From Raja brachyura (Eukaryota): a stretch of 64,000 bases of DNA. A model generated the notes under the pieces. It made no database searches. It saw only the letters and a list, made by a program, of their open reading frames with translations, and had not been told where the DNA came from. Made by a program: the position numbers and the translations under genes. Below, one piece after another: positions 21,744 through 64,000 of the stretch; position 1 is the stretch's first letter; each line of letters starts with the position of its first letter. The stretch lies in the NCBI GenBank assembly GCA_963514005.1, contig OY740821.1, positions 13,826,001 through 13,890,000 on the forward strand, written 5' to 3'.

Positions 21744-22940
21744 TCAGTGAGGAATTGCCGTTATTCTCATACTCTGTGACGCAATTGGATATGTAACCAT
21801 TGGAGTGGTGGCATGGCTTATGGTGATTCCTGGCAGTGCTTGTGCAATTGATACTGCCACTGGTGCAACAGAAACAGCCACGGGGGCCATGGATACTGGG
21901 GGTGCCATTCCCTGGGCGATGGTCTGGGCCAGTGCAGCAGGGAGGGAGGCAATTTCAGGGTTAAGATGTTGTGCTGTTTGTGCAGCATTGCTAGGCGGTG
22001 CAGCAGAAGCAGTTGCCACTAGATCTTGCTGGATGACTGGTCGTGGTTGAAGTGCTTGGCTGCTCAACGTGGTGTGAGTCTGTGCTATACCATGGTTGTA
22101 GTTGCTTAGCGTAGCCACAGCTGGTGCTGCCAGTATTTGCTCTGTCGCTGTGGGAGTGGAAGTCAGTGTCACCACCTTGGTTTGGTTGCGGAAATGTGCA
22201 TTTTGCTCCAAGAGCACCTCGTTAGTTGCCATCAAATTCGAGATCTGCTTTTTCAGTTCCTCAACTCGCTTTCGGAGCATCAGATTCTCCTCTTCTAGAA
22301 ATCGATAGTCCACAGGACGCGAGTTTGAGAGACTAAAATCATAACTTTCAAATCGTAAGCCATCCACTCTTCTCCTCTTTAGAATATGGTCATAGTCAAT
22401 ATAGCGATCAGTCTCATAGAGGTCATCAAATGGGTCGTAGCGTCGCACGACAGGAGAGAGCACTGGGTCTCGTGCCAATCTCTCCAAAGTTCTATTTTCA
22501 TACTCGTATTCATCACGTTTTAAGTGCCGAAATTTACATTTAGATCCTCGTTGACAGTCCCCTTTCAGGTAATCTCGGCAGATTGGAACCTCGCCTTTTT
22601 TAAAAGAAAGGTCAGAAGGTGAAAGGCCAAGACCCATGGCCACCGTAAGGCGTAGACGCTGGGGAAGCTCTCCTGATTTTTTGTAATGTTCCTCATCTTC
22701 CTTTGTCCCATGAATAAACTTGCAGTTGATACGAGTGCACTCCTTGTTCTGATAATCATGGCAAAAGACAAACTCATTTTTTTTAACACCCAAGTCGGAC
22801 ACCTCATTAATGTCGGGGTGGTAGAACTTGCAGCGCTTGCCACGTTTGCAGACATTGCGCAGGAAGTCACGGCAAATATCATCTGAGCTGTGGCCAGCCT
22901 CGTCATTACCTCTGTTAAATAAATTATCTTTATCCGGCAT
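21744..22940 (-). CDS. ZC3H10: Zinc finger CCCH domain-containing protein 10, canonical copy (copy 1), single coding exon, 398 aa
   Basis: MPDKDN...ICRDFLRNVCKRGKRCKFYHPD, FCHDYQNKECTRINCKFIH, ICRDYLKGDCQRGSKCKFRH (three CCCH fingers); KRRR NLS; coiled coil LEEENLMLRKRVEELKKQISNLMATNEVLLEQNA; tail MVTYPIASQSMRITAIPH. The ATG is at 22940 (the ORF track starts at an upstream GTG). Minus-strand acceptor ttttctttttcag| puts the exon start at 22987. Confidence 0.95.
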   Translation of the reverse strand: MPDKDNLFNRGNDEAGHSSDDICRDFLRNVCKRGKRCKFYHPDINEVSDLGVKKNEFVFCHDYQNKECTRINCKFIHGTKEDEEHYKKSGELPQRLRLTVAMGLGLSPSDLSFKKGEVPICRDYLKGDCQRGSKCKFRHLKRDEYEYENRTLERLARDPVLSPVVRRYDPFDDLYETDRYIDYDHILKRRRVDGLRFESYDFSLSNSRPVDYRFLEEENLMLRKRVEELKKQISNLMATNEVLLEQNAHFRNQTKVVTLTSTPTATEQILAAPAVATLSNYNHGIAQTHTTLSSQALQPRPVIQQDLVATASAAPPSNAAQTAQHLNPEIASLPAALAQTIAQGMAPPVSMAPVAVSVAPVAVSIAQALPGITISHATTPMVTYPIASQSMRITAIPH

Positions 22941-24651
22941 CTTCACAGACTATTATTGTGCTTCTCAGCAACTGTATAGAAAAACATCTGAAAAAGAAAA
23001 TCAAGGTACGTCTTTACAGAGAAGGAGGAAGTCACCCACAAAGCAAGTGTCACTTGAACCACTGCATTTTGGCCTCAGCAAGCTGAACGACCTTTGCGTG
23101 GGAAAAATAAAGGCTTCTAATTGTGTCTGTCTGGTGTCAGCATCAAATATTATTACAAAATTAGTTGTAGAAGTTAAATACGCTCCCCTTCGATTTGTCT
23201 ACTCTAGAACTTCGGGTAAACAAGTCCCATTGTAGCAGTGACACAATTTACTTCCCCAATAATTGGTTCATTTATTTTAGTAAATTATAGATTTTATTTT
23301 TGCAGCTACATATGCCCATTAAGATTTTGTTTAAAGTTTGCCACACTTGTTTCATTTTGAACAACACAACTAAAAAAAGGTGTATGTGTGTGTGCGCGCT
23401 TGCTTGCACCCGCCTGTGCGTCCCATTTCCCCCCCCCCCCCGAAGGTGCCCGTGTCTCCAACGCTCCCACATACTGCCTTGATAGAGTTTCACGAGAAAA
23501 TGTTTGCATCTTCAGCCAGCAAATATTTCCTGCCGTTATCGTCGCAGGGCTAAATATGATGCTAAGCTTACATATTTGATTAAAGATGAGGCCAACTTGT
23601 ACTGATTTTCATTGTAGTTGTCCTTAGCCCAAAGTAAAGGGGGAATATAGCCGGAGTTCCCCTTTCTGATTCCAACTCAGTTATTTCTGCTGGGAAATAC
23701 ACAACTGTACACTGAAACTACTTTCCAGTACATTATTTCTAATTTAATACTTGAAATTTCACATGACTCCAGAAGCCAATCAAAAACAAAACAGCCAATA
23801 GAGTGCAGACCAAGCTTGCTTAAATCGCAATTTGATAATGACCGGTTACTCTATTATAGCAAGACAGGTTAATTGATAAATATTAACTACAATTGCTAGG
23901 AATTACAATGCCTGACAATAGATAACACAACTTGGAAGAGGACTTTGGCACCCAACCAACAGGCACGTGGAAGCATTATCGGGACGTTCCCTCTTTCTCT
24001 TTTCTGGGAGCTCTTTCCATCCAGTCGACTCCAACACAGCAAGATGTGGAGTACAGCATCATTAGATGTCAACATTAGGCCTTTACTACCACGCCTCAAG
24101 ATCACTGCAGTCTGTCAAGACAGCAAGAGATGCAGGCAGCAAGCAGTCTGACTGCTTTCCAATATTGTTTAAGGGTCCCTATCTAAAGTAATCTGTGGTC
24201 TCTGATTTACCAACAGATCTTGGCAGAAAAATTCACATCATAATCATGCCCTGTGTAAAATTAGATTTCATGATCGTTTATTTATGCTCTGATTGTCATG
24301 TCGCTGAGCTTAATCGTAATCCCCATGATGCTGAAGACCTCCAAGGTTGTCCTTTGTCCTTCTATATTCCATCAGAAGGCTATCTTCCCAAGTCTCCTTT
24401 TTTATTTAAAGAAGATAGACAAATTGATAAAAAGGACTTATTTCAGAAAGTATTTGCACAATTATCAAGGGTTGGGAGAATTATGTCTATGTAAGAGATC
24501 GATCTCTTAGCTAGGCATAATTCTCCGTGCCTTTCATCTGCAGCGCTTGTAACACGGGAAGCTCTGTGCAGCCCACGTGCCGTCAGCGCTGCCTGAAGCC
24601 GTCAATTTAAAGCGGGGTTGAAGGCGGCTGAAATTCTGCCTTTGCTGTACA

Positions 24652-24683
24652 GCGCATGCGCAGCAGCCTACTGCGCATGCGCA
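24652..24683. promoter_or_regulatory. Two NRF1-type GCGCATGCGC sites in a CpG-rich patch; candidate promoter region for copy 1
   Basis: GCGCATGCGC at 24652-24661 and TGCGCATGCGCA at 24672-24683, about 1.7 kb upstream of the copy-1 coding exon. May instead be transposon-derived. Confidence 0.35.
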
Positions 24684-24733
24684 GCGCTAGTTTCTTGGCG
24701 GATTTTTCAAATATGGATTGGCATTATTTTAAG

Positions 24734-24767
24734 CAAAGATTATAGAGGAGCTCCTCTATAATCTTTG
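24734..24767. repeat. Perfect 34-bp palindrome
   Basis: CAAAGATTATAGAGGAG|CTCCTCTATAATCTTTG. Confidence 0.9.
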
Positions 24768-24895
24768 ATTTTAAGTGTATCTTAGGAAACGGGGAGAGAA
24801 GAATGGAGCTTGTGTACCAACAACATGGTAAATACATTTCTTGGTGATGTTTTTAAATACCGTATTTCCCGGGTTGTGGGGGTGTACGGAGAGCT

Positions 24896-25532
24896 CCTTT
24901 CACAGCGTTTGGGGAGTCTGGCCCGGGGCAAAGTTGCGGGGAGAGCACAAATGTTGTGAAGGAGGGGATCGGGATAATGCCACTTGCGACGCTCCTTGCA
25001 CGGAGGCGTGCAATGTCACTGCATTGAGGCCGGGGGGGGGGGGGGGGGGGGAGAAGTAGCTCGGGTGGCAGAGCGGCCGCCGGGCCGGACAGCGGAACCA
25101 GCCGCCACCTTAGCTCCTTCTGCCGGTCCCTACTCACCTCTGGCAACTCTCCGTCTAAAAACCTCTCTCCTGCCGCTCGCTGGCCTCACTCATGTCCTTA
25201 AATTCCGATAGCGCGATTGAGGTTACTCGGCTGTGGGAATTTAAGGATTTGCAGGAAGCCGCTGACATGAGCGAAGTCGGCGAGCGGCAGGTGAGAGGTG
25301 TTCCGACGGAAGAGCACTGCCAGAGGTGAGCGGGCCGGCAGAAGGTGCTGAAGTGGCGACCGCTCGCAGCTCCCCGAGCTGCTTCTATCGCCGGCTACAG
25401 TGCGGTGGCTTCGCGCCCAGAGAGCTGCGGCAGTGGTGCGTTACTGGCATTATCCCGACCCCCTCCTTCTCAACACTCCTGCTCTCCCCACAACTTTACC
25501 CCTGGCACAGACTCTCCACACGCTGTGAAAGG
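24896..25532. mobile_element. GC-rich foldback (MITE-like) element, long imperfect inverted repeat
   Basis: Outer arms CCTTTCACAGCGTTTGGGGAGTCTG and CAGACTCTCCACACGCTGTGAAAGG; inner arms TCCTTAAATTCC and GGAATTTAAGGA around ~25220. Confidence 0.75.
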
Positions 25533-26512
25533 AACTGTCCCCCCCCAATTGGTCCCTTGAACAAGTGTTGTCATTCAATTAGATGACAACTGATTCAACT
25601 TGTCCCTATACTCCCATTTTTCCCACCATCTCTCCACTTGCCATCACCCTTCATCCCCCACCCATTCAGTAATTCAGAATAAAGGAGACTAGGAAGCCTT
25701 GGGCAAATTGAATTGTTACTGTCTTTATTTTTATTTTTTATTTTTACGGAGAGAACAATCTGGGCATGCGCGGTTTAATTTTTTTTTAAAGCCGACTGAG
25801 TGCCTACCCTGAGTAATTACTCACGGTACGTGCCTGGTTGAAACCCTTGTGTTCACTCAAGAGGGGGCGAGATGTTCTGAAGCTGCTGTAAGTGTGGATT
25901 TCTATAAAACGTTGAGCAACATCTACCTCCCTTATCTGTACTTCTGTCCAAACGAATTGCAAGGAGCCTCCCAGAAGTCACATGTATTCCAGCCTTTGCT
26001 GCTGTTCCCTTTCTGATGAACAAGCCTGCTACATCGGATCCGGACACAGACCAGTCATTAAGACTTACATTATTTTCAGAAATAATTGAGAAGTTGCTGC
26101 AGAACTCTGCATTCCCTTCTGTACAAATAAACAGTCCAAGAGCATACAAGATCAAAAACAATGGCAATTAAAAGCAGTTGCTTGAAAAGCACAACTTGTC
26201 AGTGACAAACTGCCTGTGCACACTGCTGACTTCTATGACAAGTTTAAACTTACCACTTCTGGATTTGCCACTGGCATCTTGTCACTACTGGCAAGACAAA
26301 CATTTACTACCCACCCTTAATAGACCTCAACAAGTCATCTTCTTAACTTGCACAGTCCTTCCAGTGGATACAAGCCCACAATATTTAGGGTAGAGAGTTC
26401 CAAGGTTTAGACCCAATTACTTTGAAGGAACAGCAATATGTTACCAAGTCAGGATGGCGGACGACTGGAAGCAACCTGCAAACTATGATGTTCTCATAGG
26501 TCTGCTGTCCTT

Positions 26513-26945
26513 TTGCAGGGAGCGTTGCAGAGAGTGGTCAAATCTGCCCAAAAAAAAATCACAAATAACTGCCTCCCTGCCATTGAGGACATTTACATCA
26601 GCAGGTGCAAGAGCAGAGCCTCAAACATCATGAAGGACCCCACCCACCCGGCTAATGGACTCTTTGCCCCGCTCCTCTCAGGGAGAAGGCTGCGCAGCAT
26701 AAAGGCCAGGCTTAAAGCCAGCTTCTTCCCCGAGGCAGTGAGACTTTTAAACTCCCTACCTCACTGACTGAACCCTCACTACCTCAGTGAACTGTCTGCT
26801 GCTACTGCTGTGGGCATTATCATGCTGCTGTCTTTTAACCATGCTGCTTTTTACCTTTTACTATTTATTCATAGGCGTTGCGTTCATGATTTATGTGGAA
26901 GCATGTTTTTATCGATTGACAATAAATAAATCTTAAATCTTAAAA
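26513..26945 (+). mobile_element. Rex1/Babar-type LINE 3' fragment
   Basis: LQRVVKSAQK...RCKSRASNIMKDPTHPANGLF..L.SGRRLRSIKA..LKASFFPEAVRLLN; 3' tail AATAAATAAATCTTAAATCTTAAA. Confidence 0.8.
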
Positions 26946-29009
26946 CCTTTTCCATTTTGGTCAGATAGGTCATGGGTTTATAAGGTGTTGTCCAAAACTC
27001 CAAAATGGTGAGGCCCTTGGCAGCAGGACAGTGCACTAGGTAATGGTGTCATGATGGCAATATGGGCTGATCTGCCTTCCTTGCTTGTTCTATTGTCTAA
27101 ATGCTGTACATTCCAGGAAGCCTTTGCACACAATACAAATAAGCACTCTTCTAGAATTTGGAGCCATTGATCAATGAAGAAAGGCAGCAGCTGGCTAAAC
27201 CAAACATCCAAGCTTAGCTGACTGTCAAATCTGCAAGAACCAAAATCTCTTGAATGTCACTAACATTCAGAAACATTCAAGAGCTAGAAAAATAAATGAA
27301 ACCATATTTGAATATCAAAACACTTAACAAACTTGATTCATTTTTTAAAAAAAATACACGTTAGCTTTTACTGCCTCGGTCTCTCACAGCCCCATGCTGG
27401 AGAATTAATTAATCAACATTATTACAACAATTTTGGGCTCTGCTACTGGATTTCACAAAGAGTTCAACATTGGAGTGCAATCGCTGAAGAGAGACCAACA
27501 TATTCAGGCCTCCAATTCTGCGCCCTCATTCCCCCATTGCGAGACTCATTGTAGCAGAAATAGAGGGTGTCAGCTTTCAATTTGATGAACTGCAATCCCC
27601 ATAAATTTAAAAACTTTTGTAGTGTGTTAAAGACAAGTTGTATTGATAACACTTGCTTGAGACTGGGAACCAACTTGATATCGTGCACTTATCTGCTCTA
27701 AAGTGTTAATACATGCATATTTGGGAGGAGCGAAGCGAGAAAGAAAATCCAAATTAATATTTGATGTCTTGTGTTAAATCAGGTGTGACCTTATCATCAT
27801 CCTTATGGTTCACAATCAGCAAAAGATCCAAAAGAAGTCTTTAAAATTAAGCTTTCCCCATGAACAAATAAAATGCACAAACCTGACAATAACTGTCCTA
27901 AAGTTTGCACTTCAGAGAACAAAACCTCCTTAATCAGGTTCAACTACATCCCATCAAAAGTGATTTCTAAAAAGTGCATATCATTAATTAAGACATCACC
28001 CACCATAAACATGACCTGAGCAAACCAGCCTCTCTGCCCAAGGTAGGGTAGTGAATTTGCAAAATTTGTCTAGTATCCAAACTTCCACATGGTTATTACA
28101 ATAAAATATCATAATTCCAAAATATGGAATAACACCATCCTAAGTAACTATTTATCAAATGACTTACTATATTCTGAATTGCCACATAACAAAATATACA
28201 TTTCTAGCAAGAAAACTGGTCTGGAATTCTGGATAAACAGGAGGGGTCTGAAGACAAAGGGCTCCTCCAATGGGTTTGAATCCATTGATTAAGTGAGCCA
28301 TATGGGCCCCATCAAGACTCGGGATTGATCCCCAGTCTGTGCCAAGTTATTTGTACACGTCCAGGGAAACGGCAACTGTAGTATGATTGGCCTCAGAAAA
28401 CCTGGTGAAATCAATTACTGATTGACACAGAGTACTAACATGTAGAACTACTGAATGTAGATTCACTCCAGCAAATGCTCCATAAGTCAAATTTCTGATC
28501 TCTTACCAAGCAAAAACCAGGGTCTTCTCAGATTGGAGAGGTGAGCAAAAGAAAACAGAAAATAAACCACTAGCACATTCCTCCTGGCAATGGTTGCATC
28601 ATAGGATCCACCAAGGTTTGGTTGTTTATAGTATTTTTGAATACAAGTATCTAATTTAACATACACTTTGAATATGCAATTCCACTGCTGATCTCTACAT
28701 GTTTCCATAAGATTCCTCACAAAGATCAAGCCACCATTTTAGTAGCAAGGAACAAAGGACAGGAATGAGCAGAGCATTTCACACAGGAACTGCAGCTTTC
28801 CCCAAACTGAATTTTAGTTGCCAACTTTAAGCAAACAGGAAAATGTATCTCACTATAAGATATAAGACACAGACAGTAATGTTGCAGGTTTAAAGTCTAA
28901 TACTATAATGGTTAGTAGCGTCTCCAGAATGGAGGCATTATACATCCACCTTCCTATCCCTGAATATTACTTGGCTGGACTGCTAGAAATGTGCAGGTTT
29001 GACTATAAT

Positions 29010-31196: not shown

Positions 31197-31979
31197 TTGT
31201 AGATTCTATTCTGAAATCGATTTCACCTTACTACCTCTTCTCCCAGTTCCAAAAACTCTCAAAACTTGGCTTCAAATCACTTTGAGACACCTCATTTAAC
31301 TCTCTCCGAGAGTCCAGTCTTCTCTCTATAGACTAGTCTGATGAAAGGTCTCGACCCAAAACATCACCTTTTCCTACTCTCCAGAGATACTGCGTGACCC
31401 GCTGAGCATTTTGTGTCTATCTCCTCTCTATAAAGTTTATTGGGACATTTTATTATATTAAAAAGGTTTGACATAAATACGAATTAATGTACTAACAAAA
31501 AAGAAAGCATTTTAACCGCAGTCTTACTCCAACTATTAATAACAAATATCGAATATTTTGTGACTCAGGGGCAATCCAAGAATTCTTTAAACAATGTTTA
31601 TTAAGTTTGTTACTGTGAATCAAACCACATAGAGTAACAAACTTGCTAAGGTTTCGAAGGCTGTTATGGGATTTCTAGGCCTCGGCATTCTGTTGGATGG
31701 AGCAACTCCATACGCAAATAGAACTAAATCCTGACTAAAAATATTTAAATTATAGGCGTAATTAACAGAGTGGATTGGAACAATTACAAAATTGACAGAA
31801 AACAGGGACATATTTACAAACACGGTTAAGCTCCTTTTACTCACTCCTCCAAACACAACGAGTACCACACAGGTCCTCCCAGACAAGAGCGACTTAGAGT
31901 CAAATAGCTGCACTTGGCTGGAATGCTTAATTTCTCACAATGGGATGATGTATTTCAAGTTAAAGTTGTTAAATTGAAT

Positions 31980-32900
31980 ATCCACAAGATATTTTTTTCA
32001 ACGTAAATGCCTGAGCATATTGTACTGGAATACAGTCCCACCGCACATAGACGTTGCCGGCTGCTGAACAGATGCCTGCAGCGACACTCCCTGCAGCGTC
32101 TTCTGCCGTCGCTCTTGCCTCGGAGGACCAGAATGGAAACTCGTCGTGTTTGGAGGACCAAGTGAGGGGAGAGGGGGGGGGGAAGGCTAAATAGTGTAAG
32201 TGAATGCGTTGTCTTTTCTCCATTTGTTATTGGTCGAGTTTATTCCAATATTGGTAAACTGTAATTATTAATATCCATCTTTGAGAAATAGAACAATGTT
32301 TAGTTCGCATCTGTGCGCTGGAATTGATATCGGTCCGTGTGAATCACTTGAGGCCTAGGAGCGCAGTTGAAGCCTCGCGCCAAGTTCGAGAACTTTCCGT
32401 CGCAACCCCCACCAAAACTGTCAACATCCAGGTTTCCTCATGGCGGTAGCCTAAGAACAAGGATTGTTTAAGGCAGAGAAGTCACGTGTAGTGGTTGGGT
32501 TAAAACCTATGGCCGTCTTGGAAAAAAATGGATTAGTGGAATCCGGACACAGAATGAAAGTCCAATGAATGAACCATACAAAGTGTCCAAGATGAGTGTA
32601 GTTTACCAATCACGGGATTCCCACATAATTTATAAATCCGTATTAAAATATGTCCGTTTTAAAATTAATTGAAGCCGTTTGCTCCAGGCGCCGACCGATG
32701 GTGCAGCCCATCTTCAACCGAGTGGTTGTGCAGCATTTGGTGCCCCGGTTGAGAATGTCGCTGAGTTTGGGGCAAAAGAAGATCACCGCTGTTCAGTCAG
32801 GTGCAAAATGCGTTGTTAAAATGAAAGTGGATATTTTGCCGCCTGCCATGGTGTAATTCAGCAGTGTTTGGCGAGTGAAGTTGAACCCTTCCCATTCCAT
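31980..32900. promoter_or_regulatory. CpG-enriched putative promoter and first non-coding exon of ZC3H10 copy 2
   Basis: Local CpG enrichment; TCTGCCGTC and CTCTTGCCTCGGAGGACCAG...GGAGGACC motifs shared with the 48 kb and 62 kb modules; candidate donor AA|GTGAGG at 32162. Confidence 0.45.
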
Positions 32901-36750: not shown

Positions 36751-37273
36751 CTTTTAATGAGATCGGCTGACTCTGGTGAGTTAAATCAGCACTACTTCTT
36801 CATAATCTTCTTTAACATGTTGCTTCAGGAATTTGTTTCCAGTACTGATTCTAACATCCTGCATTCACAAATTACTATAAAAATCACTTGTAGTATGAAT
36901 TTAATTTTTTCCATGCGTGTACTATCTGGAGTGCAATAATCGAGAAGACATGTTTACTTTGTTATGCCGGTGTCTTTTTCAGAAAAACTCAAAGCATTGG
37001 TATTTGCGATATTAAAAGTAAAACTGCCGACTTAATACTGCTTATCTCTCTTTAAATTTTAATATAAACCTTGATGTTCCACTGGTAACTTGCTGTAGGT
37101 ATTTTCTATTGAATTAACGATGTAGGAGCAGCTACAATATTTTGTGAGAAAGGGATTAAGCTAAATTACTTTGTAGATGAATCTCTTATTTATTGTAAAA
37201 GACCTGGCTTCTTTTTCTTTTACAGTTGTTTATTGAGAGCCTTGGCTGAGTAGCGCAGAAATATTCTGGAAGC

Positions 37274-38821
37274 ATGTCCGAGAACGACACTGATAATTTA
37301 GTCAACAGCGGCAAATATGAGCCTGGCAAGAGCAAACGGAATGTTTGCCGAGACTTTCTGCGCAATGTCTGCACTCGTGGTAAGAATTGCAGGTACTTCC
37401 ACCCTGACAATGTTGAGGCCTCCGACCTTGCCGACATAAGGAACGACACTGATAATTTAGTCATCATTGCTAATGACGAAGCTGGCAAAAACAAATCGAA
37501 CATTTGCCGAGACTTTCTGCGCAATACCTGCAACCGTGGTAAGAATTGCAGGTATTTCCATCCAGATGATATTGAGCCGTCTGTCCTCGCTGACGTAAGG
37601 AACGACATTGATAATTTAGTCAACTTTGGCAATGATGAGGCTGACAAAAACAATCTGAATATTTGCCGAGACTTTCTGCGCAATCTCTGCAATCGTGGTA
37701 AGAATTGCAGATATTTTCACCCAGATGATATTGAGGTCTCCAACCATGCTGACATAAGTGATGACGCTGATAATTTCGTGAATAATAGCAAATTTGATGC
37801 GAGCAAGAGCAAACGGAATGTTTGTCGTGACTTTCTGCGCAATGTCTGCACCCGTGGTAAGAATTGCAGGTACTTCCACCCGGACAATATTGAAGCCTAT
37901 GATGTAGGTGATATGCGGCATGAGTCTATCTTTTGTCAGTACTTTCAAAATAGCAAATGTACCCGTGAGAACTGCACGTTCATTCACGGGACAAAGGGTG
38001 AAGAGAATTATTACAATAAAACAGGAAAGCTTCCTGCCCACTTACAAAAGACAGTGGCTGTGACATTCGGGCTCTCGCCCTCTAATTTGCCTCTTATTAC
38101 AAAGGAAGTCCCATTCTGCCGTGACTTTCTAAAAGGCAAATGTCGAAGAGGATCCAAATGTAAATTCCAACACTTGAAACGTGATGACAATGATAAGACG
38201 AGTGTAGAAAATGTGTCACAAAATAAAGAAGTTTCTCCTGAGATCTGTAGATATGACCGTTTGGATGACCTGTATGAGACAGAGAAATGTGATGTTGACC
38301 AAACTCCAAAAAGGAAAAGAACGGAAGGTCTACGGTTTGAAGTATTTGATTACAGCATCCCCAGTCTGCGTCCAGTTGAAATGAATTTTTTGGAGGAGGA
38401 AAACCATATGCTCAGAATGCGCAATGAGGAGCTTAAGAAGCAGGTGTCAAGCCTAATGATTACAAATGAGGTACTTCTGGAGCAAAATGCTGATTTACGC
38501 AAGCAAGTGAAACTGGGGATCCTGACCACAGGGACTGACCCAACACAATCATCAGCTATGCATGCTGTTACCAATTATAATCATAGTATAGTGGAGACTC
38601 ACACCGCCCTGAGCAACCAGGTTGTGAGATCAGAGTCTATTTCTCATCAAGAATTGATAGCGCAAGCTAGAGCTCATAATGCTTTATGTTCTGAAGCTAC
38701 ATCCCAAAGTCCACCCTGTCTTAGTGCTGCTCTCTCGACTCTCTCGACACCTTATGCCCAAGGGGTGGCTTCACCAGTTTCAATCGCACAATTGCCATCT
38801 CAGTTGCACCATTGGCAGTGA
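37274..38821 (+). CDS. ZC3H10: ZC3H10-like paralog (copy 2) with six CCCH fingers, 515 aa; C-terminus frameshifted (homology continues to 38934)
   Basis: Acceptor ctttttcttttacag| at 37225/37226; 4 x CRDFLRNxCxRGKNCRYFHPD, then CQYFQNSKCTRENCTFIH and CRDFLKGKCRRGSKCKFQH, PKRKR, and coiled coil LEEENHMLRMRNEELKKQVSSLMITNEVLLEQNA. Confidence 0.88.
   Translation: MSENDTDNLVNSGKYEPGKSKRNVCRDFLRNVCTRGKNCRYFHPDNVEASDLADIRNDTDNLVIIANDEAGKNKSNICRDFLRNTCNRGKNCRYFHPDDIEPSVLADVRNDIDNLVNFGNDEADKNNLNICRDFLRNLCNRGKNCRYFHPDDIEVSNHADISDDADNFVNNSKFDASKSKRNVCRDFLRNVCTRGKNCRYFHPDNIEAYDVGDMRHESIFCQYFQNSKCTRENCTFIHGTKGEENYYNKTGKLPAHLQKTVAVTFGLSPSNLPLITKEVPFCRDFLKGKCRRGSKCKFQHLKRDDNDKTSVENVSQNKEVSPEICRYDRLDDLYETEKCDVDQTPKRKRTEGLRFEVFDYSIPSLRPVEMNFLEEENHMLRMRNEELKKQVSSLMITNEVLLEQNADLRKQVKLGILTTGTDPTQSSAMHAVTNYNHSIVETHTALSNQVVRSESISHQELIAQARAHNALCSEATSQSPPCLSAALSTLSTPYAQGVASPVSIAQLPSQLHHWQ
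37283..37918 (+). repeat. Intragenic coding tandem repeat, 4 x 159 bp (53 aa)
   Basis: Unit starts at 37283, 37442, 37601 and 37760, exactly 159 bp apart and all in frame. Confidence 0.92.
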
Positions 38822-41800
38822 CTCAATTGCTCCCAGGACTTGTCATGACTTATACCACCACACAAATGGTCAGTTATCCAAATGCATCACAGAATATGAA
38901 GTTCCTCTGTCGTGCAGAGGATAGTTGTGATTAGAAGGCATTTCTTTTGAAGCTTTACAAGAGATTTCTATTTCTTATTGGTTCCCAGGGCAATTGCATA
39001 AACTGAGTCAAGTATGATTGTTAAAGAGGGAGTCTCACCATCACCAACCCTTTTGCAAAGTCAAAAATGAAATGATGAGAATTTGTGTTTTCTGCCTCAT
39101 TTGTTGCTGTTGAACTCGTCTGGAGAACAGGTTGCGCAGAATTGTCCCTCAGCAGTAGTAGCAAATGGAAGTTGAAATGTGCTTCAATTTGCAACCATAT
39201 ATGTCGCAAATTTCTTTTGGGGGGGGGGGGGGGGTAAGAAAGATTGAACTCAAGTTTTTGAATTCTTTCAAACCTTTTTTTGATTTGCTCATATTGTAAG
39301 CTCTGGTGCAAATGAAAGCAAAGTATTTGGCAGCGCATTGCAATGCCCACACTAACTCAAGCTTTCCGACTGCAGCAGCAGCAGTGGGATACGGTTTTGT
39401 CTGCAAATATGGCTACTTTCTTTTGCTCATATAAAATTGGTTTCAATCAACATCAAAACATCAGCTTTCTAAAAACACTTGTACATGCGCTTAAAGAGCA
39501 TTGTGCCTTTACATTTTTTTTAATCGCTTATTTTTAAAGACAAGAAATTATTATAAAACTACAAAAAAAATTACCCTCATCCTCTCCATCATACCACCCA
39601 ACCAAAAATAAAATCCTCTGCTGCTTTGATTGTGGTCAGAGCAGAAATTAAAGAATGCAAAAAATGACACCATGGCTCCCTTTTCTCCCTCTTGTTGGAG
39701 AACTGTCTTGCAATAAGTATGACAGTTTTACCCACAGATGGAGGGAATGCAAAACTATAACATAATGGCTCTCTTTGTTTAAATGCAGGAATGAACCCGG
39801 GGCTAATTTCCATTGATGGCATTGGAAGTAAGATCCATAAAGCACCTTGGGTTAATAAGTGCAGCTAATGATGATCATCAAGTTCTTTTAAGCTGTCTTG
39901 CGCCAACATTTCTCAAATTAGAGTACTCTAAACTACAAATTGTATTAATAATTTATATCAAGCAAAAAAACCAACTTTATCTTCTACAAGGTATACTGAT
40001 GGCAAGACTTCCTCTACGTCTGTTAAATATAGAAATCTGCAAAAAGAACAATAATGGAGTGATAGGCTGTGTCAAAACAGATAATTCAAAGTGAGTGAAT
40101 AAACTTTCCCATTCATTTTTTGGTTGATTACTGATGTATTTTAAAACATTTTTAAACTGATCCTATGCCACAAATGTCATTTCCCTTTTTAATCTGAAAT
40201 TACACTTGGGATTATTACTGGGAAAAAAATAGTAATATCCCCTACTTTACTAAGTAAAAGTATTCTGATCTTTTCAAACATTTTTGTAACTAGCCCATTT
40301 CTCAGTAAACGTGTGTGGAAACGTTTTTTTAAGAAAGTCATGTGCGTTTAGTGTTTTCCTAATGAAACACTCCCTATGCTTCACAAGTCTTCAACTAACA
40401 TATTATATTTTTTGCAAATAGTTTTTCTCTAATCATTGCATTTGTTACTCGCACTGTGACTATGTATTTCTTTCAAAGCTGTGCAAGTCCTCTGTAGATT
40501 GGGCTACAAAAAGCATTTTTAGAAATAAAATGAGTACATGTTCACCATAAACAGTCACTGAGGCCACCAAGGATATTAAAGTGAAGCAAGAATAATTGGG
40601 GTGCAAGCTTCTAAAGCAGAGTTAAATGTAATATATACAGATTTGGTTTGGTGCCTGGAACGTGGAGACTGGATGTTGGTCAATAAATAAGCATGACCAG
40701 AAAAGCAGCAGAAGATGTGGAGAAACAATTGCTGGTTTCTTATATTTGATGTATTATTGGAAGGTTGATGCTCAGCACTTGTAAATTTCCATGCCGTTTT
40801 CTCATCTAGCTGGGATGCTCCCTGTCAGATGCCTCATTGTACTAGCTCATTGTCAGTCGGGATTCGGGGGGTGTCTGCTGTTCCCTGCGTTCGGTATTGT
40901 AACAATTAAGTTGCAAAACCAATGAGAAAAAATAAATACACATTCATACAAAAACTCACTATATAGATGCTATACAGTATATGTAAACGTGTATGTATGT
41001 GATTTGACTAAAATATATTTTAGTCGTGGACAGTATAAACATGCATCAATGGTTATTATCCGACTATTCCAGTTGAAAATGCTTGTGGATGGTGAGGATA
41101 GAATCTGACTCGGCAAAATATGCTACCTGGGCTCATAAATTTAAATAGTATTGCTACCTTAACCACATTGTGAGCGTACCTTTTGAATGAAAAATATGAT
41201 AGTAGGAAATTGCCAGAGGAAAAAGGGGAAGTCCTGTAGAGAAGCACAGATTAGAAAAGTAGAATGCAGCAAATAACCTGGCATTTACTATAATGTCCTG
41301 ACTGGTTCTCAGTTTAGGTGTTAACTTATGACTGCTTTGCATGAGTAGTGCATAATTGTGCCCATTTAAATTTTCCTTGCTCAAACAAAATATACCAATG
41401 AGTAAGTTGTAAAGAGGAGGTAAGAGTTAGTGATATTCTAATGATTAACCTATTCCTGCATATTACTATCATAATGTTAATTTTGCAATTTTTAAATTAA
41501 AGCTTTTAATCAATATTTTTGACTTGGAAGACAGTAGATTTCTAACTTGCCACAATGTGCATGGGAATTTATATGTGATGGTATTTCTGCCAGTCAGTCA
41601 GTGATGTTGAAAATATACTTTGTGGGGAGGGATTCAAAGGCCAACACCATCAGTGAGATATTTGGCACATGTGCTTCTGTAAACCATGGTTTTAAAATAC
41701 AGCTAACACTTTACTATATTGAAAATCCCTGAGATTTTACAACACAGCAACTAACGTCCAAGATTAGTTAACTGCGGCCAAAAAATCCAAAACTACAGCA

Positions 41801-47956: not shown

Positions 47957-48656
47957 TTTTAACACGGGCAGTCAAAATCGATGTCTAAATAAACTTCAGT
48001 GCTTGCATTTTCCTGTTTAAAATGTGGAAGGATTGGTTATGGTTATATTGCAGAGAATACATCTGCACTCTAGATTTAATCACTGATTTAAAATGTTATT
48101 GGAAGGCCACATAGAAAAGAATGCATTTTTAAATGACCGATCCAAACTTCATTAAGGTTTGATGTTTGTTATCTGTTTGGTATTGCCAGGCAATGCCAGG
48201 CTTCACTGTGTCTGCCGTCAACGGTGTTGGTGTTGCCTTCAGCTGGCGGGCGGCAGGGGACCGGGGTTTCCTCTTGGCTCGGAGGACCAGTCACTTTACA
48301 CTTTACCCTTTACTGGGAGGACCTGCGTAGAGCCTCTTTGTGTCGGAGCTGTGAGGGAAGAAGCCGAGCCGAACTGTATAGGTATCCCAGCCCTGGTTTG
48401 TGAGTTTTCATGCACTTTAATGTACCCGTGGCAATCTCGATTTGAATGTGCAAACGTTGTGCGGAGAGAGTCGGCATTTGTCTGCGGCCGGGAGGCGTTT
48501 TAATTGTAACAGGAAGTCGAGGCCTAAAGGCGCCATTGCGGCCTTAAATCCAAGCAAGGCGATAGTGAGATTCCTGCTGCTTCTCACAGCTACAATCTGG
48601 AGCGACTGAGCCTGTGTTCATCAAAGCACATGCTTAGATCTATAGATCGACGATAA
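47957..48656 (+). repeat. Duplicated module, copy A (putative promoter/5' non-coding exon upstream of ZC3H10 copy 3)
   Basis: 48121-48656 reads identically to 61896-62431 (offset 13775); 47957-48120 aligns with a few substitutions and two indels. Confidence 0.9.
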
Positions 48657-53400: not shown

Positions 53401-54462
53401 TGGGGTAGTTTATAGGGCTGCACAGTGGTTGGCAGCTGCTGCCTCTCAGCTCCAAGCACCTGGGCTCATAGCTGTTTTCAGATTATCTCATATTTTCCCA
53501 TGGTAGACAAAAATGCTGCAGGTGAGGCAGCATCCATGGAGAGATGGAAATAGGTGACTTTTCGGGTCGGGACCCTTCAATTTCTTCTTATTTTACCAAA
53601 GTATTTCTGGCAGGTTAATTAGCTACTCTAAATTATAGAAGAATAAGTAATTATTAAGTAAGTAACCCCCTAATTATAAGTAAGTGGCAAAGAGAATCAA
53701 AGGGAAGTTAATAAGTGAGGAGAAGTTGCTGGGATACGGGGCAAGTAAAGTGGTAGTATGAGACGAGTGACGTTGTCATCCTGGGAGGTATAATTTATAA
53801 GATAAGTATAAAGAAATGGGGAAAATTTTATGATTTAAAAAAAAATAAAATAAAACTTTCCTCCAAATCTGTAAATTGTACGTGGATGGTCTTTTATTTT
53901 TCTCTTGTTTATTAATTAGACATTCCCAGACGACTCAGTTTAAGGTGACCAGTTGTGCTATATAGCCTATAAGTCCCAAGTCTTATCTCTGTTGTTATGA
54001 GTTATCTAATCACAGCTAGCTTGGTGGTATGGAATGTCACGTTGTCTTTCGGCGAGTTCTCCAACAGGGAGTGAAAATTAAATCAGTCTTGTTCCAGATC
54101 ACAATGCAGTGGCCCCTTCTGGCACTGCATGTGTGAGCATGTTTGGCTTTGATGTCCTTGCATGAGAATAGCTTCCTAATAGTTGAAAAACTGGGTGAGG
54201 AACAAGAAAACCCCTAAATCTAATATACCTATGTTGTCTTCATGAGTGGAAAGAAGCAATTTGAGACTGAGTAGATTGTTGAAATTCTATTATTTAATAT
54301 TGTAAGTACGTCTTCCATTAAATTGATGGAAATTTAAGCACTGATACGGGTGAATTGGTACATTTTCAGTTAATTCCCTTTGTCTTTGTTAAGATGTAAC
54401 TTGTTTTTCTTTTGCAGTTCCTTGCTGAGCATCTTGAATGAACAGCGCTGAATTAAACTAAA

Positions 54463-54950
54463 ATGTCAGGTACAGATCATGTAGTCAACACTGGCAACAA
54501 CATGACTGCCAATGGCATTGATATTTGCTGAGAACCCGTGCAACTTCTGCATCTGCGCCAAGCGCTGCAAGTTCTACCACCCAAAGGCAAATAAGGTTTT
54601 TGTGCTTGGCTTTTTTTCTGATGACCTACGTATTAAATTCTGGATACCAGTCTGCACTGACTGACAGAAGGTTGGACTCCAGTGATCAGGTGCAAATTGC
54701 TGATAGAACCATATAGGTACTGTGAAAATTGCAATGTGGAAAGCGTGTACCATTTTCCTGTGCTTTTTCCTTGAGTAGATGTCTATCGAGACATCCGCAA
54801 AATGATCCACATCATCAAGATGGGAATGATGTATCCTCAGATCATATCCAGTCGATTTCTCATACTTTCACAAAAAACGTATGCTGTGAAATTACAATTG
54901 CGAACAACACACGTGTCAAACCTGGAGCAAAATGCACGCATCTGCTAACT
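54463..54950 (+). pseudogene. ZC3H10: ZC3H10 pseudogene (copy 3)
   Basis: Acceptor ttttcttttgcag| at 54417/54418 and a 5' UTR like copies 2 and 4; MSGTDHVVNTGNNMTANGIDIC* with TGA at 54529 replacing the Arg of DICRD; after a frameshift, C..AKRCKFYHP; later CTGGAGCAAAATGCA (LEQNA) at ~54922. The 3' boundary is approximate. Confidence 0.75.
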
Positions 54951-58400: not shown

Positions 58401-58714
58401 TTCGTGTTTGCTGAAATAATGCCGTTGTGATTATTTAATTGCTGCATTTTATTAAGTTTGGCTCTGACTCTACTACTTTTGCTTTGCTTTGGTATTCAGT
58501 ATAGTTTTCCTGTAATAGTTCAGTTTCAGAGTTTTATGATATGAATTCGTATACCGAGTTATTTAGAAGGGACGCTCGATCGCGAATGGGGAAAACTGGT
58601 GTGGTCATCTTGTCGTCTCCTTTGAGTCTTTCACGTCCTATTCTTTCCAGCGTCCCACGGTCTAATTCTGTGTTTAATTTAGGGAGGGTAGGGTGGGGGT
58701 GGGGGGGTAACACG

Positions 58715-58805
58715 GGGGCGCCATTTTAAATCCGACTTTTCGAGCCGCATTTTTCTGCGCCATAGTTACAAAATGGCGCCTGAAGGTATTGCGCCTAATC
58801 GGCGG
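58715..58805. promoter_or_regulatory. CpG-rich promoter-like patch with two inverted YY1 motifs
   Basis: GGCGCCATTTT (~58717) and AAAATGGCGCC (~58770) in a CpG-rich stretch (~58570-59090), about 5 kb upstream of the copy-4 coding exon. Confidence 0.5.
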
Positions 58806-59143
58806 ATGAATTTGCCAATTAGCCAAGTCGGTCGCCTTCCTTAAACTATCCCCCCCCCTCCCTCCTCCAAACCTCGATATTGATGTGTTGATTTTATCAA
58901 CTGATTTCAAAGCACGATTAATTTGCGCACGTGGAGGCTGCTTGGAAGTAAGATCCAGAGCCGTTGTCTTTCCCTGGCGCTGTAAATTGTGCACCCTCTA
59001 AACACCGCAGCTTCCAAAAATCGACGGTGCTTCAGCTCTTATCCTCGCCGTGTTACTCCTCCTCGCTTCACGATTTGTGCGCTCCTGGGTGTCACAGACC
59101 TGGGTTTTTTTTAAATTGAGACGAGGTTCAGAATACTTAATTA

Positions 59144-59240
59144 CGGGATACTGAGTTGGATGATCAGCCATGATCATATTGAATGGCGGTGCAGGCTCGA
59201 AGGGCCGAATGGCCTACTCCTGCACCTAATTTCTATGTTT
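59144..59240 (+). mobile_element. CR1 3' tail fragment
   Basis: Matches 56813-56910. Confidence 0.8.
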
Positions 59241-59879
59241 AATGGAGATACAAGCAACTGCAGATGCTGGAATCTTGATTTCATCCTCTATCGCAGAATT
59301 AACGACATGCCCACCCAGAATGGGATATTTAAGTTTTTCCAACGAGTAAGTTGTGTTGGAAAGGAGTTTTAAAGAAAAGCAAGCAGTGTTTATCCCTTCC
59401 TGGTTCCATCGTTCCCTTCCCCATCTGACTTGATCAATCACCTATCAGCCTCTGTCCCATCTGGTGCCACCCGCCCCTCATTCATTCCCAGTCTGGTTCC
59501 ACTTATCACCCACTAGCCTCTATCTCCCCACTCCCCACTATATTGACAATATTTCCTGTTTCCCTCAGTCCTGATGCAAGGTCTCAATCTGAAATGTCGA
59601 TTTAAATCTTTTGCCTCCACAGATGCCGAGTTCTTCCGGCATTCTGTTTGTAACAGCTTTTCCGATGTCCAAATTATCCCTCCCCTTTTCCACTCCTTGT
59701 TAATTAAACAAATAAATCAAAATCTGCAAATGCTGCCAGTCTGAAATACACGTCAAGTAAATGGTTTTGGTTGATGAAAGGTCATCAATAGAAAATCAGT
59801 GGATAATGAGGTCTGGGTATTGTAGCAGACATACCCTTATTATATTTGATTGTAATAAGGTGCGGCATATTGATAGAGA

Positions 59880-60700
59880 GTAGAAACAAGGAACTGCAGA
59901 TGTTGGCTTACGAAAAAGGACACCGCGCTGTAATAACTCAGTGGTTCGGGCAGCATCTCGAGAAAATAGATAGAGATATTGGTGCCAAACACTTCAAATG
60001 GCCATTATGACTATTTCATAATTTGATGTCAACCTGTGAATAATCATGGGTATTCGCTGTGAAATAAAGTACTGGAGTAATTCAATAGATCAGGCAGCAT
60101 CTCTGGAGAACATCGACAGACGTTTCTGGTTGGGACCCTTCCTTTGTCTGAAGAAGGGTCACGAAACATCACCTATCTATGTTCTCCACAGATGCTGCCT
60201 GACCCCCTGAGTTACTTCAACACTTTGTGTTATTTTTTGTGAACCAGCATCTGCATTTCCTTGTTGTAGGAAGGAACTGCAGATGCTGGTTTAAACTGAA
60301 GATAAGACACAAAATGTGGAGTAACTCAGCGGGACAGGCAGCATCTTTGGGTAGAAGGAATGGGTGACATTTCGGGTCGAGACCCTCCTTCAGACTTGCT
60401 CAGTCTGAAATGTCACACACTTGCTTGACCTGAAATGTCACACATTCCTTCTATCCAGAGAATTATATTTTGGATTGCTTCCTGAGATGAAATTGAGATT
60501 GCAGGCTCATGAGACAGTTTATAAGAATTGATGGAAGTAGGCAAAGTTTTGGGTCTAAACCCTTCTTCAAACTGTCTGAAGAAGGGTTTCGGCCTGAAAC
60601 GTTGCCTATTTCCTTCACTCCATAGATGCTGCTGCACCCGCTGAGTTTCTCCAGCACTTTTGTCTACCTTCGATTTTTCAGCATCTGCAGTTCCTTCTTA
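59880..60700. mobile_element. Cluster of Penelope-like terminal repeats with several degenerate hammerhead cores
   Basis: Repeated GGAACTGCAGATG/GAGTAACTCAGC/GGCAGCATCT blocks in both orientations; CTGAAGAAGGG at 60148 and 60576. Confidence 0.75.
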
Positions 60701-61254
60701 AAAACATTATAAGCACTGATGTCAGGCCAACTGGGAGGATATTAAAATAAATACCGTAAAATGTTGTCAGAAGTACAAGTTTGGTGGATTGGAAATTTTG
60801 GGGGACTTCCATAGCATGGAACCTTAGTGATTGAAGATAAGCATGGCTGCATTTGGTTGACCGATTAAATTCTAGGGAAAGCAGGAGACCAAAGTGAGAA
60901 GTGTTCAAAAACCTGAGGGTTTGGGACTGATACTGAGAGAGGGGAAGGGAGTCTTTGGAGGAATTTGAAAACACAAATGATAACTTTATGGTAAAGATGT
61001 TGCTCATCTGGGATCCATTGCTCACAGCGACACTAGGTGGTGCTGATTAGGATGCAGTATGTCATAAAACTTAGAGGGTAGAAAATTGTAAACTTAGATA
61101 AGGTGAATATACATTTAAGACTTAATTCTGTATTTTGAAGATGGTTAAAGGATGGAATGAATACATAGTTGACGTACATTTGGAAAACTGGGGTACCAAA
61201 AGGATTTTGTTTCTGTAGTTCTTAACATTGTAGTGCAGTTTCATAGACAAAGTT

Positions 61255-61690
61255 CAGTGTCTGCCACGGGGTAGAGGTGAATTGTACCCCAGCTTATGGA
61301 AGGACCATCCAGAAGCCTGATAACAGAAGGGTAGAATCTGTTCCCGAGTCTGGTGTTACACATTTTCAAGCTTCTCTATCTTCTGCCCGACGGGAGCAGG
61401 GAGAAGGAATGACCAGGGTGGGACAAATCTTTGATTATGTTGGATCGCTTGTGATGAACTGGGCTACATCCACAAATCCTTGCGGTCGTGGGCAGAGTTG
61501 TTCCCAAACCAAACTGTGATGCAACCTGACAGTATGCATTCTATGGTGCATCTGTAGAAGTTTGTAAGAGACATTGGTGATGTACCAAATTTTCTCGGTC
61601 TCCTGAGGAGGTTGGTGTGGTTTCTTGGCTATTGGCTCATTGTGGTTGGTCCACGATTGATTGTTGGTAATATTGATTCCAATTGAAACA
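61255..61690 (-). mobile_element. Rex1/Babar-type LINE fragment
   Basis: Degenerate similarity to the 45870-46200 LINE segment (GCCTGATAACAG...CTGTTCCCGAGTCTGG...CTTCTGCCCGACGG). Confidence 0.55.
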
Positions 61691-61698
61691 CTCGCCCA

Positions 61699-62431
61699 TT
61701 TTAACTTGGGCTGTTGAAAACGATGTTTAAATAAACTTCAGTGCTTGCATTTTCCTGTTTAAAACGTGGAAGGATTGATTATGGTTATATTGCAGAGAAT
61801 ACATCTGCACTCTAGATTTAATCCAAAGGGGGTTCACTGATTTAAAATGTTATTGGAAGGCCACATAGAAAAGAATGCAGCATTTTTCTCAAACGATGCA
61901 TTTTTAAATGACCGATCCAAACTTCATTAAGGTTTGATGTTTGTTATCTGTTTGGTATTGCCAGGCAATGCCAGGCTTCACTGTGTCTGCCGTCAACGGT
62001 GTTGGTGTTGCCTTCAGCTGGCGGGCGGCAGGGGACCGGGGTTTCCTCTTGGCTCGGAGGACCAGTCACTTTACACTTTACCCTTTACTGGGAGGACCTG
62101 CGTAGAGCCTCTTTGTGTCGGAGCTGTGAGGGAAGAAGCCGAGCCGAACTGTATAGGTATCCCAGCCCTGGTTTGTGAGTTTTCATGCACTTTAATGTAC
62201 CCGTGGCAATCTCGATTTGAATGTGCAAACGTTGTGCGGAGAGAGTCGGCATTTGTCTGCGGCCGGGAGGCGTTTTAATTGTAACAGGAAGTCGAGGCCT
62301 AAAGGCGCCATTGCGGCCTTAAATCCAAGCAAGGCGATAGTGAGATTCCTGCTGCTTCTCACAGCTACAATCTGGAGCGACTGAGCCTGTGTTCATCAAA
62401 GCACATGCTTAGATCTATAGATCGACGATAA
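61699..62431 (+). repeat. Duplicated module, copy B (putative promoter/5' non-coding exon upstream of ZC3H10 copy 4)
   Basis: 61896-62431 reads identically to 48121-48656, and both give the same 114-aa ORF translation. Confidence 0.9.
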
Positions 62432-63872
62432 AAGGTGAAAACCACCATCAAATACTGCCCATTATCTCGTTGCGTGGTATGCATGGTACAACAAGCCGTT
62501 ATGTGGGGGAGGGATAGGGAAAACGTTTTTTTTTAAATGTTTGTACTTAAATAGTTTTCAAAAATGTTTTTGGATGTGTTTAGTCTTGCACGAAGGGCGA
62601 GAATTGCTATTTTTTGTGATCAGTTACTGCAGTTGGAGTGCCAGGAGGGTACGTGGGTCTGGATATTCGTACACGAAGGCGGTGGAGAGTATTCTAAATG
62701 GTTCTGCCTCTTTATTTTGGCCGTTTGACTAGGTCTGATTATTACAGTTTACACTTTCTGAATGAGGACTTGGATTTTGTGTTCACGTGGTTTGAGGTGT
62801 TTCTTGACCAAGAAAGTAGAGGCCTAGTGTTCTGGTAGTGTTGAAAACGTGGTAGTTATTGGATGTGTACAATCCAGGAAGTGTTAAATTTCTATAATTC
62901 TGATGGCAAGTACAGAAGTGGTCACATACTTTGTACAGGTTCAATTTCTTACTTTTGTATTGTTACTAATTAATAATGCCCTGCCTTATGGAAGAAAATA
63001 GTATGCAAATGTAAATGAATGGAAAGCCAAGAGTGCAAAAATGGAAACAAAAGTGGTTTGGCACACTGTAATTTGCTTGGAGCTACCTTGAGTAACTTGC
63101 TTGAGCTTGTCTTCACATTTGAAGTCACAGACATGTTCACACCACCTGCTGATTTCCATGGTATTTCAGGGCAACTCTGTAGTGAGCCCCTGATTAGAGA
63201 GGTTTTGTGCAGATGAAACCTTTCCTTTGTAATTGAAATGAGTACTGGATTAACAAGGCTAGTTGTACAAGATATATTGTTCTGCTATGTAAGTACTTTA
63301 AAGGGAAACAAATGTTGGGAATGGACTTGTTGGTGTTGTTTCCAATAAATTGTCTGCTACCTGTGGAAGTATCGACAAGGGGCTTCAAATTTTGTTTTGG
63401 TCAAGTTGTGTGCTTCCTTGGCTAAAGCGGATAATTTGTGTGGAGCACTGCCATGATGAGTTAGGCTGGCACTGTTTGGAGATCATCATACTGATTTTTT
63501 CCCCATAAATATTGGTGCACATTTTGTGCACATTTTTAAAAGAAGTTCTGATGGCACATCAGGATGTGATCTGTTCTGGAGTTGGAAAACTTTATAAACC
63601 TGAAAATGCAGATAAATTTTGCGCGCACCTCACTTGTGGATTTAACATTCCCCAGTGACTTTTTTTCCTTGTGCAAGCAAAGATATTGCACACACCTCCC
63701 TGCTAACTGCCACTTAATCTTGCTACCCCGGCCACTAATTCCAGTGTTTTATAGAATGCGCAGCAGTTAGTTTGTAAACGATCGCTCTTTCTCTGTAAAG
63801 ACCTGCCTTTTTTTTCTTTTGCAGTTGCTTGCGTAGTGCCTTGGCTAAACAGCGCAGAAATAATCTATAAAA

Positions 63873-64000
63873 ATGCCAGATAACGGCACCGAGGAGGCTG
63901 GCCCCAGTACAGATGATATTTGCCGTGACTTCCTGCGCAACGTCTGCAACCGCGGTAAGCGCTGCAAGTTCCGCCACCCAGACGCTAATGAGATGTCCAC
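63873..64000 (+). CDS. ZC3H10: ZC3H10-like paralog (copy 4), 5' part only; runs off the window
   Basis: Acceptor ttttcttttgcag| at 63824/63825; ATG at 63873; MPDNGTEEAGPSTDDICRDFLRNVCNRGKRCKFRHPDANEMS is open to the window edge. Confidence 0.85.
   Translation, partial: MPDNGTEEAGPSTDDICRDFLRNVCNRGKRCKFRHPDANEMS

Follow-up and report, generated by a model that had tools for sequence, protein, structure and literature searches.

We analysed a stretch of 64,000 nucleotides from the skate Raja brachyura (GenBank assembly GCA_963514005.1, contig OY740821.1, positions 13,826,001 to 13,890,000 of the forward strand; hereafter the window, numbered from its first letter) that carries a local group of genes homologous to the CCCH zinc-finger gene ZC3H10. 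A tblastn search within the window recovered four ZC3H10-homologous coding exons (c1, c2, c3 and c4), all at the positions given in an earlier note on this DNA, with E values from 3e-105 (c2) to 6e-4 (c3; 2e-8 with c4 as query). That note had also suspected that the array continues, and a genome search, which placed the window on G000:C42, found a fifth copy, c5 (282 aa, + strand), at G000:C42:13910000-13910848, corresponding to 84000-84848 in extended window coordinates, 20 kb past the window's end. In 223 kb of contiguous sequence, which starts 40 kb ahead of the window and runs 119 kb past it, no copies beyond these five were found; elsewhere, the genome search returned a dispersed ZC3H10 paralogue on contig C41 and a fragment on contig C35. 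The intact genes c1, c2, c4 and c5 have 3, 6, 2 and 3 fingers, respectively, with a C-terminal tail present in c1 and c2 and absent from c4 and c5; c3 is decayed. Together they almost certainly form an ancient, conserved shark-ray cluster of four intact genes and one decayed copy. The features in the window are as follows:

21744..22987, - strand: c1 coding exon (acceptor 22987; CDS 22940-21744; 398 aa)
31845..32069, - strand: c1 non-coding first exon (donor GT at 31844)
32070..32161, + strand: putative c2 non-coding first exon (donor GT 32162; 5' boundary approximate; the splice itself predicted)
37226..38821, + strand: c2 coding exon (CDS 37274-38821; 515 aa)
48121..48656, + strand: first-exon/promoter-like block upstream of c3 (predicted donor 48351)
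54418..54830, + strand: c3 pseudogene (ATG 54463; stop at codon 23; frameshifts/indels)
61896..62431, + strand: first-exon/promoter-like block upstream of c4 (predicted donor 62126)
63825..64000, + strand: start of the c4 coding exon (CDS 63873 to extended 64571; 232 aa)

The c1 gene has the canonical ZC3H10 layout of three fingers (ZF1-ZF2-ZF3), a basic region with nuclear localization signal (basic/NLS), a leucine zipper and a low-complexity tail with a conserved C-terminal motif. Its protein is 98.7% identical to that of Leucoraja erinacea, and three CCCH fingers were found in 14/14 c1 orthologues; in its fingers, basic region, zipper and tail, c1 is what is expected of a ZC3H10 orthologue. 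Its linkage to ESYT1 (+ strand after c5, exon 1 at extended 111.6 kb, then later exons) and to PA2G4 (its exons found ~0.77 Mb off on C42) agrees with this assignment. Single-chain folds had a mean pLDDT of 54 for c1 and 53 for c4 and are usable for the zipper helix (residues 212-260 of c1) and the disordered tail only; an atlas search with the tail gave no usable match.

The copy at 37274, c2, is amplified as the earlier note had proposed: a 159-nt unit is repeated 3.9 times at 37282-37898, so that finger 1 occurs four times in 53-residue units and the protein has six fingers. The units follow an A-B-B-A protein pattern, and units 2 and 3 are near-identical within several sharks, hinting at internal homogenization. 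Behind the repeats come a recoded ZF2, ZF3 and a zipper with Asn at core position a2. A 1-nt deletion near 38790 replaces the last ~45 residues and removes the conserved C-terminal motif. Three Logan proteins share it and Rhinoraja does not, so it is likely a genuine change in some of the skates; in addition, a contig from a sequencing run that may represent the same individual agrees with 37242-39203 throughout (0 differences, 0 gaps).

In c4, finger 1 is joined directly to finger 3, without ZF2; the basic/NLS region and the zipper follow, and the protein stops after the zipper, without a tail. The copy at 63873 does have the intact reading frame ascribed to it, but at 232 aa it falls short of full length, with finger 2 and the tail missing. 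c5 has three fingers, a recoded ZF2, a zipper with Asn at a2 and no tail, and its acceptor is kept. The reported pseudogenization of the copy at 54463 was borne out by its stop at codon 23 and its frameshifts. This copy, c3, agrees with c4 at 145/214 aligned coding bases (68%) and has the same ZF2 deletion; by this comparison it is a decayed c4 duplicate. Homology past the finger-3 region was not significant (score 40 versus a shuffle maximum of 37.5) and fades after ~54830.

Origin of the cluster and hints of transcription

From their shared exons and splice sites, the copies can be shown to have arisen by local DNA-level duplication; the unit consisted of a first exon, an intron and a coding exon, and one of the copies was inverted. 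Splice acceptors (pyrimidine tract/AG) precede the ATG by 47 nt in c1 (second AG at 31), 48 in c2, 45 in c3 and 48 in c4, within the 45-50 nt noted before. The mark of a retrocopy, a first exon fused to the coding exon with no intron, was absent from c2-c5; because c2, c3 and c4 keep their acceptors and have first-exon homologues kilobases upstream, they are DNA-level duplicates and not retrocopies, as first proposed.

The first exon and intron of c1 are established by a processed retrocopy on C35, in which 32045-31847 is fused straight to 22987, making the 31847->22987 splice visible. A contig also covers 31842-32069, with 174 of its letters lying elsewhere. The retrocopy itself (L005, G000:C35 ~20.522 Mb) is a 3'-truncated retropseudogene of c1, 86-91% identical and ending at an A-rich stretch, and its existence means that c1 must have been transcribed in the germline.

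An inverted homologue of c1 exon 1 lies ~200 bp away on the + strand, with c1 and c2 head to head. The segment 32070-32161 has 84% identity to c1 exon 1 over 50 nt, inverted, and a profile match of E 2e-18 (the profile includes this sequence). This arrangement suggests that a bidirectional promoter arose by inverted duplication and that c1 and c2 are likely driven from it. In fused bird gene models ZC3H10 lies upstream of ESYT1 in the same orientation; with ESYT1 on the + strand here, the + copies likely retain the original orientation, with the conserved c1 as the inverted copy.

The blocks at 48121-48656 and 61896-62431 are 100% identical over 536 bp as assembled, with a frayed left edge, and had 2 matches in the genome search. 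The coding sequences of c3 and c4, in contrast, agree at only 68%, so the blocks have likely undergone conversion or re-duplication recently. They flank the long-dead pseudogene c3 and by eye contain motifs that we take to be ETS-like and YY1-like. A 700-bp repeat was considered as a transposon and rejected, given its 2 genome matches (the search skips very common words). Perfect identity at two places could also come from duplicated or mis-polished sequence, and so could the 1-nt deletion in c2. We nevertheless regard an assembly artefact as next to inconceivable: the coding copies differ at near-saturated silent sites and have independent orthologues, and the c2 deletion is found in the three Logan proteins as well as in the perfectly matching contig (its run possibly from the same individual).

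For c5, the interval 64.6-84 kb showed no match to a profile of the three first exons. The extended N terminus of a zebra shark c5 isoform gave no convincing match either, and a CpG scan for a first exon showed nothing clear. A CpG-rich patch at 69.5-72 kb was set aside as a candidate because by eye it looks like transposon sequence.

Contigs from four sequencing runs (library type not on record; RNA is a guess, and one is probably DNA) cover c1 and c2 exons. One of them, with 25 loose letters, begins at the c2 acceptor; c4's letters at 22839-22854, assigned to c4 by eye, are seen in contigs of all four runs. This pattern is a hint of transcription, not proof. None of the runs that a search listed as carrying the sequence is on record as RNA, a result that speaks neither for nor against expression. 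In tables for the little skate, Zc3h10-3 and -4 feature as HiChIP loop anchors next to Esyt1, whereas Zc3h10-5, which is expressed, lies among other genes, Mpi, Fes and Lingo1 (PMC10115646); this Zc3h10-5 is probably the dispersed paralogue. The 5' UTR of every + copy contains AGCGC (background 0.30 per kb), which overlaps the RNAcompete motif GCAGCG reported for ZC3H10 (PMC11612968). Among the UTRs next to the ATG, the full GCAGCG is present in c5 only and the sites are homologous, not independent, so autoregulation through this motif is a weak lead.

Orthologues, age and stasis

A search with c2 returned shark and ray proteins of 545-557 aa at 81-86% identity. The c2 clusters, the largest with 15 of its 19 members listed, included at least the following sharks (Chiloscyllium, Scyliorhinus, Heterodontus, Mustelus, Cetorhinus, Stegostoma and Heptranchias) and rays (Mobula, Hypanus, Hemitrygon, Pristis, Narcine and Rhinoraja). 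A combined c4 and c5 profile search gave a 16-member c5 cluster (at least 15 sharks or rays), a 13-member c4 cluster and a c4 of Callorhinchus. Identity to the window copies was 93.5-98.7% for c1 (13 elasmobranch rows), 82-97% for c2 (20/20 compared orthologues), 92-99.6% for c4 (13/13, with 72-73% for 2 of the chimaera cluster) and 86-99% for c5 (15/15 compared orthologues). In the bamboo shark Chiloscyllium punctatum the consecutive accessions GCC33842/43/44/45 are c1/c2/c4/c5, in the same order as in the skate, at 94.5%, 85.2%, 92.1% (partial protein) and 91.8% identity. With splits dated to 306 Ma for sharks and rays and 421 Ma for chimaeras (PMC3692497), these orthologues make c2 and c5 at least ~300 million years old and c4 at least ~420 million years old.

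A tree was built from 45 rows and 166 columns, with 22 of 67 rows, mostly near-duplicates, left out and finger 2 and the tail excluded. Support was 100/100 for each of c2, c4 and c5 and 94/84 for c2 with c5, and the genes grouped by paralogue, not by species. Stems were long for the daughters c2 (0.42), c4 (0.26) and c5 (0.35) versus 0.046 for the parent c1, and the crowns were short; taken at face value, these branch lengths show that the daughters changed once, early, and then entered stasis. Between copies dS was 1.7-3.1 (near saturation) and dN 0.22-0.39, with dN/dS ~0.11-0.22, all of them saturated between-paralogue values only.

The earlier note had read the cluster as a lineage-specific family of fast-changing daughters in birth and death. 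Turnover of this kind has left traces: the dead c3, the retropseudogene on C35, a recent doubling of c1 in Rhinoraja and c2 variants in finger number and tail do exist, and the long stems record an early fast phase. These events are nevertheless minor against a conserved quartet. The family is not lineage-specific, given that c2, c4 and c5 have shark orthologues at 82-93% in the same order and c4 is shared with the chimaera across 421 Ma; nor are the daughters fast-changing, at 85-92% identity to the bamboo shark across the 306 Ma split versus 94.5% for c1, with short crowns and clustering by paralogue. Rapid turnover is thus very improbable as an account of the cluster. Pseudogenes and copy-number variants fit birth-and-death evolution in a broad, slow sense.

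Fingers, zipper and tail in the four intact proteins

The finger counts that follow leave out chimaera rows, one partial row and one extended row. Finger 2 is invariant at 18/18 columns within c1, within c2 and within c5, and it carries 7 fixed differences from c1 in c2 and 8 in c5; c4 lacks this finger. Finger 3 has fixed differences from c1 at 1 (c2), 1 (c5) and 3 (c4) positions. With finger 2 recoded or lost, the suggestion that RNA targets may have altered is plausible; nothing in the analysis spoke for the germline, antiviral or anti-transposon roles on which the earlier note had speculated.

Zipper position a2 is Asn in 20/20 parsed c2 rows (of 21) and in 16/16 c5, Val or Met in 15/15 c1, Val in 16/16 c4, and Val, Ile or Leu in 166/169 parsed other ZC3H10 sequences. 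At the d positions and most a positions, the daughters' zippers would still fit that of the parent. A Ser-Pro site corresponding to S126 is present in c1 and c2 and has been lost from c4 and c5; the C-terminal motif occurs in 14/14 c1, 16/20 c2, 0/15 c4 and 0/15 c5. Both tail-less proteins retain the zipper and the basic region, the make-up of truncated basic leucine zipper (bZIP) inhibitors.

In mammalian ZC3H10, RNA binding maps to fingers 1-2 and DNA binding to the bZIP region (PMC6911170), and repression of interferon-stimulated genes (ISG) is reported to need every finger as well as the NLS, the coiled coil and Arg89 of finger 2 (PMC13375009). By eye against P0050, the 'R89A' primers as printed in the methods of the latter paper match the region after finger 3 and not the finger-2 arginine; we therefore give the R89 argument little weight. 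Unmatched Asn at a positions discriminates between bZIP partners (PMC4599898).

Having conserved finger changes and a conserved zipper side by side, we favor, with a probability of roughly 0.6, the reading that the quartet is ancient, that its daughters were rebuilt early and then conserved, and that they are likely zipper-linked partners altering or damping the parent's binding. Change focused on finger 2, combined with a retained zipper split at a2, favors zipper-linked partners with an altered reading of nucleic acids. All four proteins would enter the nucleus and dimerize by way of the zipper that they retain. Pairing of c2 with c5 would be favored by Asn at a2, and that of c1 with c4 by Val, giving two dimer classes, each with one tailed and one tail-less member. 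In these, c4 (without finger 2) and c5 would act on their tailed partners by competition or modulation, and c2 would gain avidity from its four copies of finger 1. Zipper-linked modulation by the daughters is about an even bet, and a strict pairing into the classes c1-c4 and c2-c5, as the a2 residues might dictate, is rather doubtful.

A predicted complex of the c1 and c4 zippers scored 0.65 versus 0.10 for the best control and was in register, with residue 226 on 167. The score mark used is reached by 51/78 solved and 2/108 mismatched microbial pairs (39/65 and 2/126 for eukaryotes). Runs agreed in at least 91% of contacts, and partner pLDDT was at least 83. A pass of this kind may reflect likeness to solved leucine zippers, and it is blind to which paralogue binds.

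The strongest competitor, less probable by a good measure yet a serious candidate, holds that the daughters are independent regulators, acting as homodimers or monomers on their own RNA or DNA targets in their own tissues and never meeting the parent. Fixed, invariant changes in fingers 1 and 2 would suit such regulators, Asn at a2 could keep c2 and c5 away from c1, and conservation alone needs no interaction. Yet the d positions and most a positions remain compatible with the parent, a promoter region seems to be common to c1 and c2, and the c1-c4 model passes its controls, with the qualification just given.

A simpler possibility is that the copies do the parent's job in other tissues or stages, by partition of expression or by dosage, with protein differences incidental. 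Such partition is a common fate of duplicates, and c1, c2 and c3/c4 have separate first exons. However, loss of finger 2, loss of the tail and multiplication of finger 1 are fixed in the orthologues examined, and human cells lost ISG repression when any one of the fingers was missing (PMC13375009); we consider this explanation improbable.

Several points weigh against zipper-linked modulation in an ancient quartet. Zipper g/e charges showed no clear partner preference, and the basic region kept in the tail-less copies means that these are not non-binders of the Id or CHOP kind. The C-terminal motif is lost from c2 in the window and in three Logan proteins, which weakens the symmetry of tailed and tail-less members in those skates. 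No report of ZC3H10 dimerization was found ('dimer' has 0 occurrences in PMC6911170), nor was a function of the tail in the available text of PMC6911170, PMC13375009 or PMC7661038; the parts at hand of PMC7661038 and PMC7879490 hold nothing on ZC3H10 domains. No chimaera c2 or c5 was among the matches listed (best 120 of 521 and best 120 of 486), and monophyly of the cluster had an AU p of 0.355, the tree leaving the deep branching order undecided. Two near-identical c1 proteins on one Rhinoraja contig, a five-fingered c2 in Pristis and the death of c3 are signs of continuing turnover.

An extended version of the favored reading, unlikely as a whole, would be a combinatorial ZC3H10 network of cartilaginous fishes, lost from or never present in bony vertebrates. 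Its zippers would fall into two classes (c1/c4 and c2/c5), each combining an effector that has the tail with a brake that lacks it, and different RNA or DNA motifs would be recognized through a recoded or deleted finger 2. A shared bidirectional promoter, twin promoters kept identical by conversion (to whose transcripts c5 may be spliced as an alternative last exon) and feedback through the 5' UTR motif would control it, tuning interferon-stimulated or mitochondrial programmes.

Known systems, dispersed relatives and neighboring sequence

Mammalian ZC3H10 resembles c1 in domain order, the S126-type Ser-Pro site, the R89-type finger-2 Arg, the neighbor ESYT1 and PA2G4 on the same contig. The skate locus differs in its four intact paralogues with different finger numbers, zipper cores and tails, in a fifth paralogue dispersed on C41, and in the inversion of the sequence-conserved c1 relative to ESYT1.

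Truncated bZIP modulators include C/EBP-beta LIP and CREM ICER. Like them, c4 and c5 keep the zipper and basic region and have lost a terminal low-complexity region; unlike them, c4 and c5 are separate genes rather than isoforms, and their RNA-binding fingers are altered too; inhibition by them, and an activating role of the missing tail, would be putative. ZF1-ZF2 matches solved MBNL finger pairs (E ~1e-6), and finger multiplication may be a route to avidity, as by analogy in MBNL. In contrast to MBNL, c2 repeats a single finger with 34-residue spacers and not a finger pair, and MBNL is not known to have a zipper.

The genes are already predicted by annotation pipelines as 'ZC3H10-like' (RefSeq/UniRef), and Zc3h10-3, -4 and -5 appear in the little skate tables (PMC10115646). 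Among the zc3h10 and chondrichthyan papers listed, no account of the cluster, of how old it is or of its domain logic came up; subscription papers, figures and supplements could hold one. The main text of the skate genome paper does not mention ZC3H10. The cluster is real, ancient, endowed with fixed domain specialization and apparently undescribed. If so, it is a deeply conserved regulatory innovation of cartilaginous fishes, in genomes usually cited for slow change. Published accounts disagree as to whether transcriptional control requires the fingers (PMC6911170 vs PMC13375009). The cluster offers a natural, selection-tested domain series (finger 2 absent or recoded, finger 1 fourfold, tail absent) that makes this question directly testable.

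The dispersed paralogue (L008:709-1650, - strand; G000:C41 ~22.93 Mb) is without finger 2 and keeps the tail, has a GC3 of 0.85 and its own acceptor, and shows an upstream ATG out of frame with the main ORF. Its relatives P0243 (96%), P0244 and P0245 form a 96/98 clade. A single finger-2 loss shared by c4 and the C41 paralogue had AU p values of 0.20 and 0.31. A highly diverged protein of 248 aa, P0247, has the design of c4 (no finger 2, no tail) and looks c4-like.

Two zc3h10-like genes whose accessions adjoin each other are present in the axolotl (P0191, P0197, P0241 and P0183), and one of them has an isoform with a short tail. They group with bony vertebrates on long branches and, as judged by eye, are altered at zipper position a1, which suggests an independent parallel duplication.

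Within the c1 intron, the segment 24475-25800 of the window holds a palindromic multi-copy element with two GCGCATGCGC boxes near 24650-24690. Exons of aqp0/MIP lie at the window's start (280-8600), and a second aquaporin, probably aqp14 as judged by position, lies upstream at extended -23.5 to -20 kb. In two shark species the aqp0 and aqp14 accessions adjoin those of c1 (PMC13109646), in agreement with the aquaporin exons to the left of c1.

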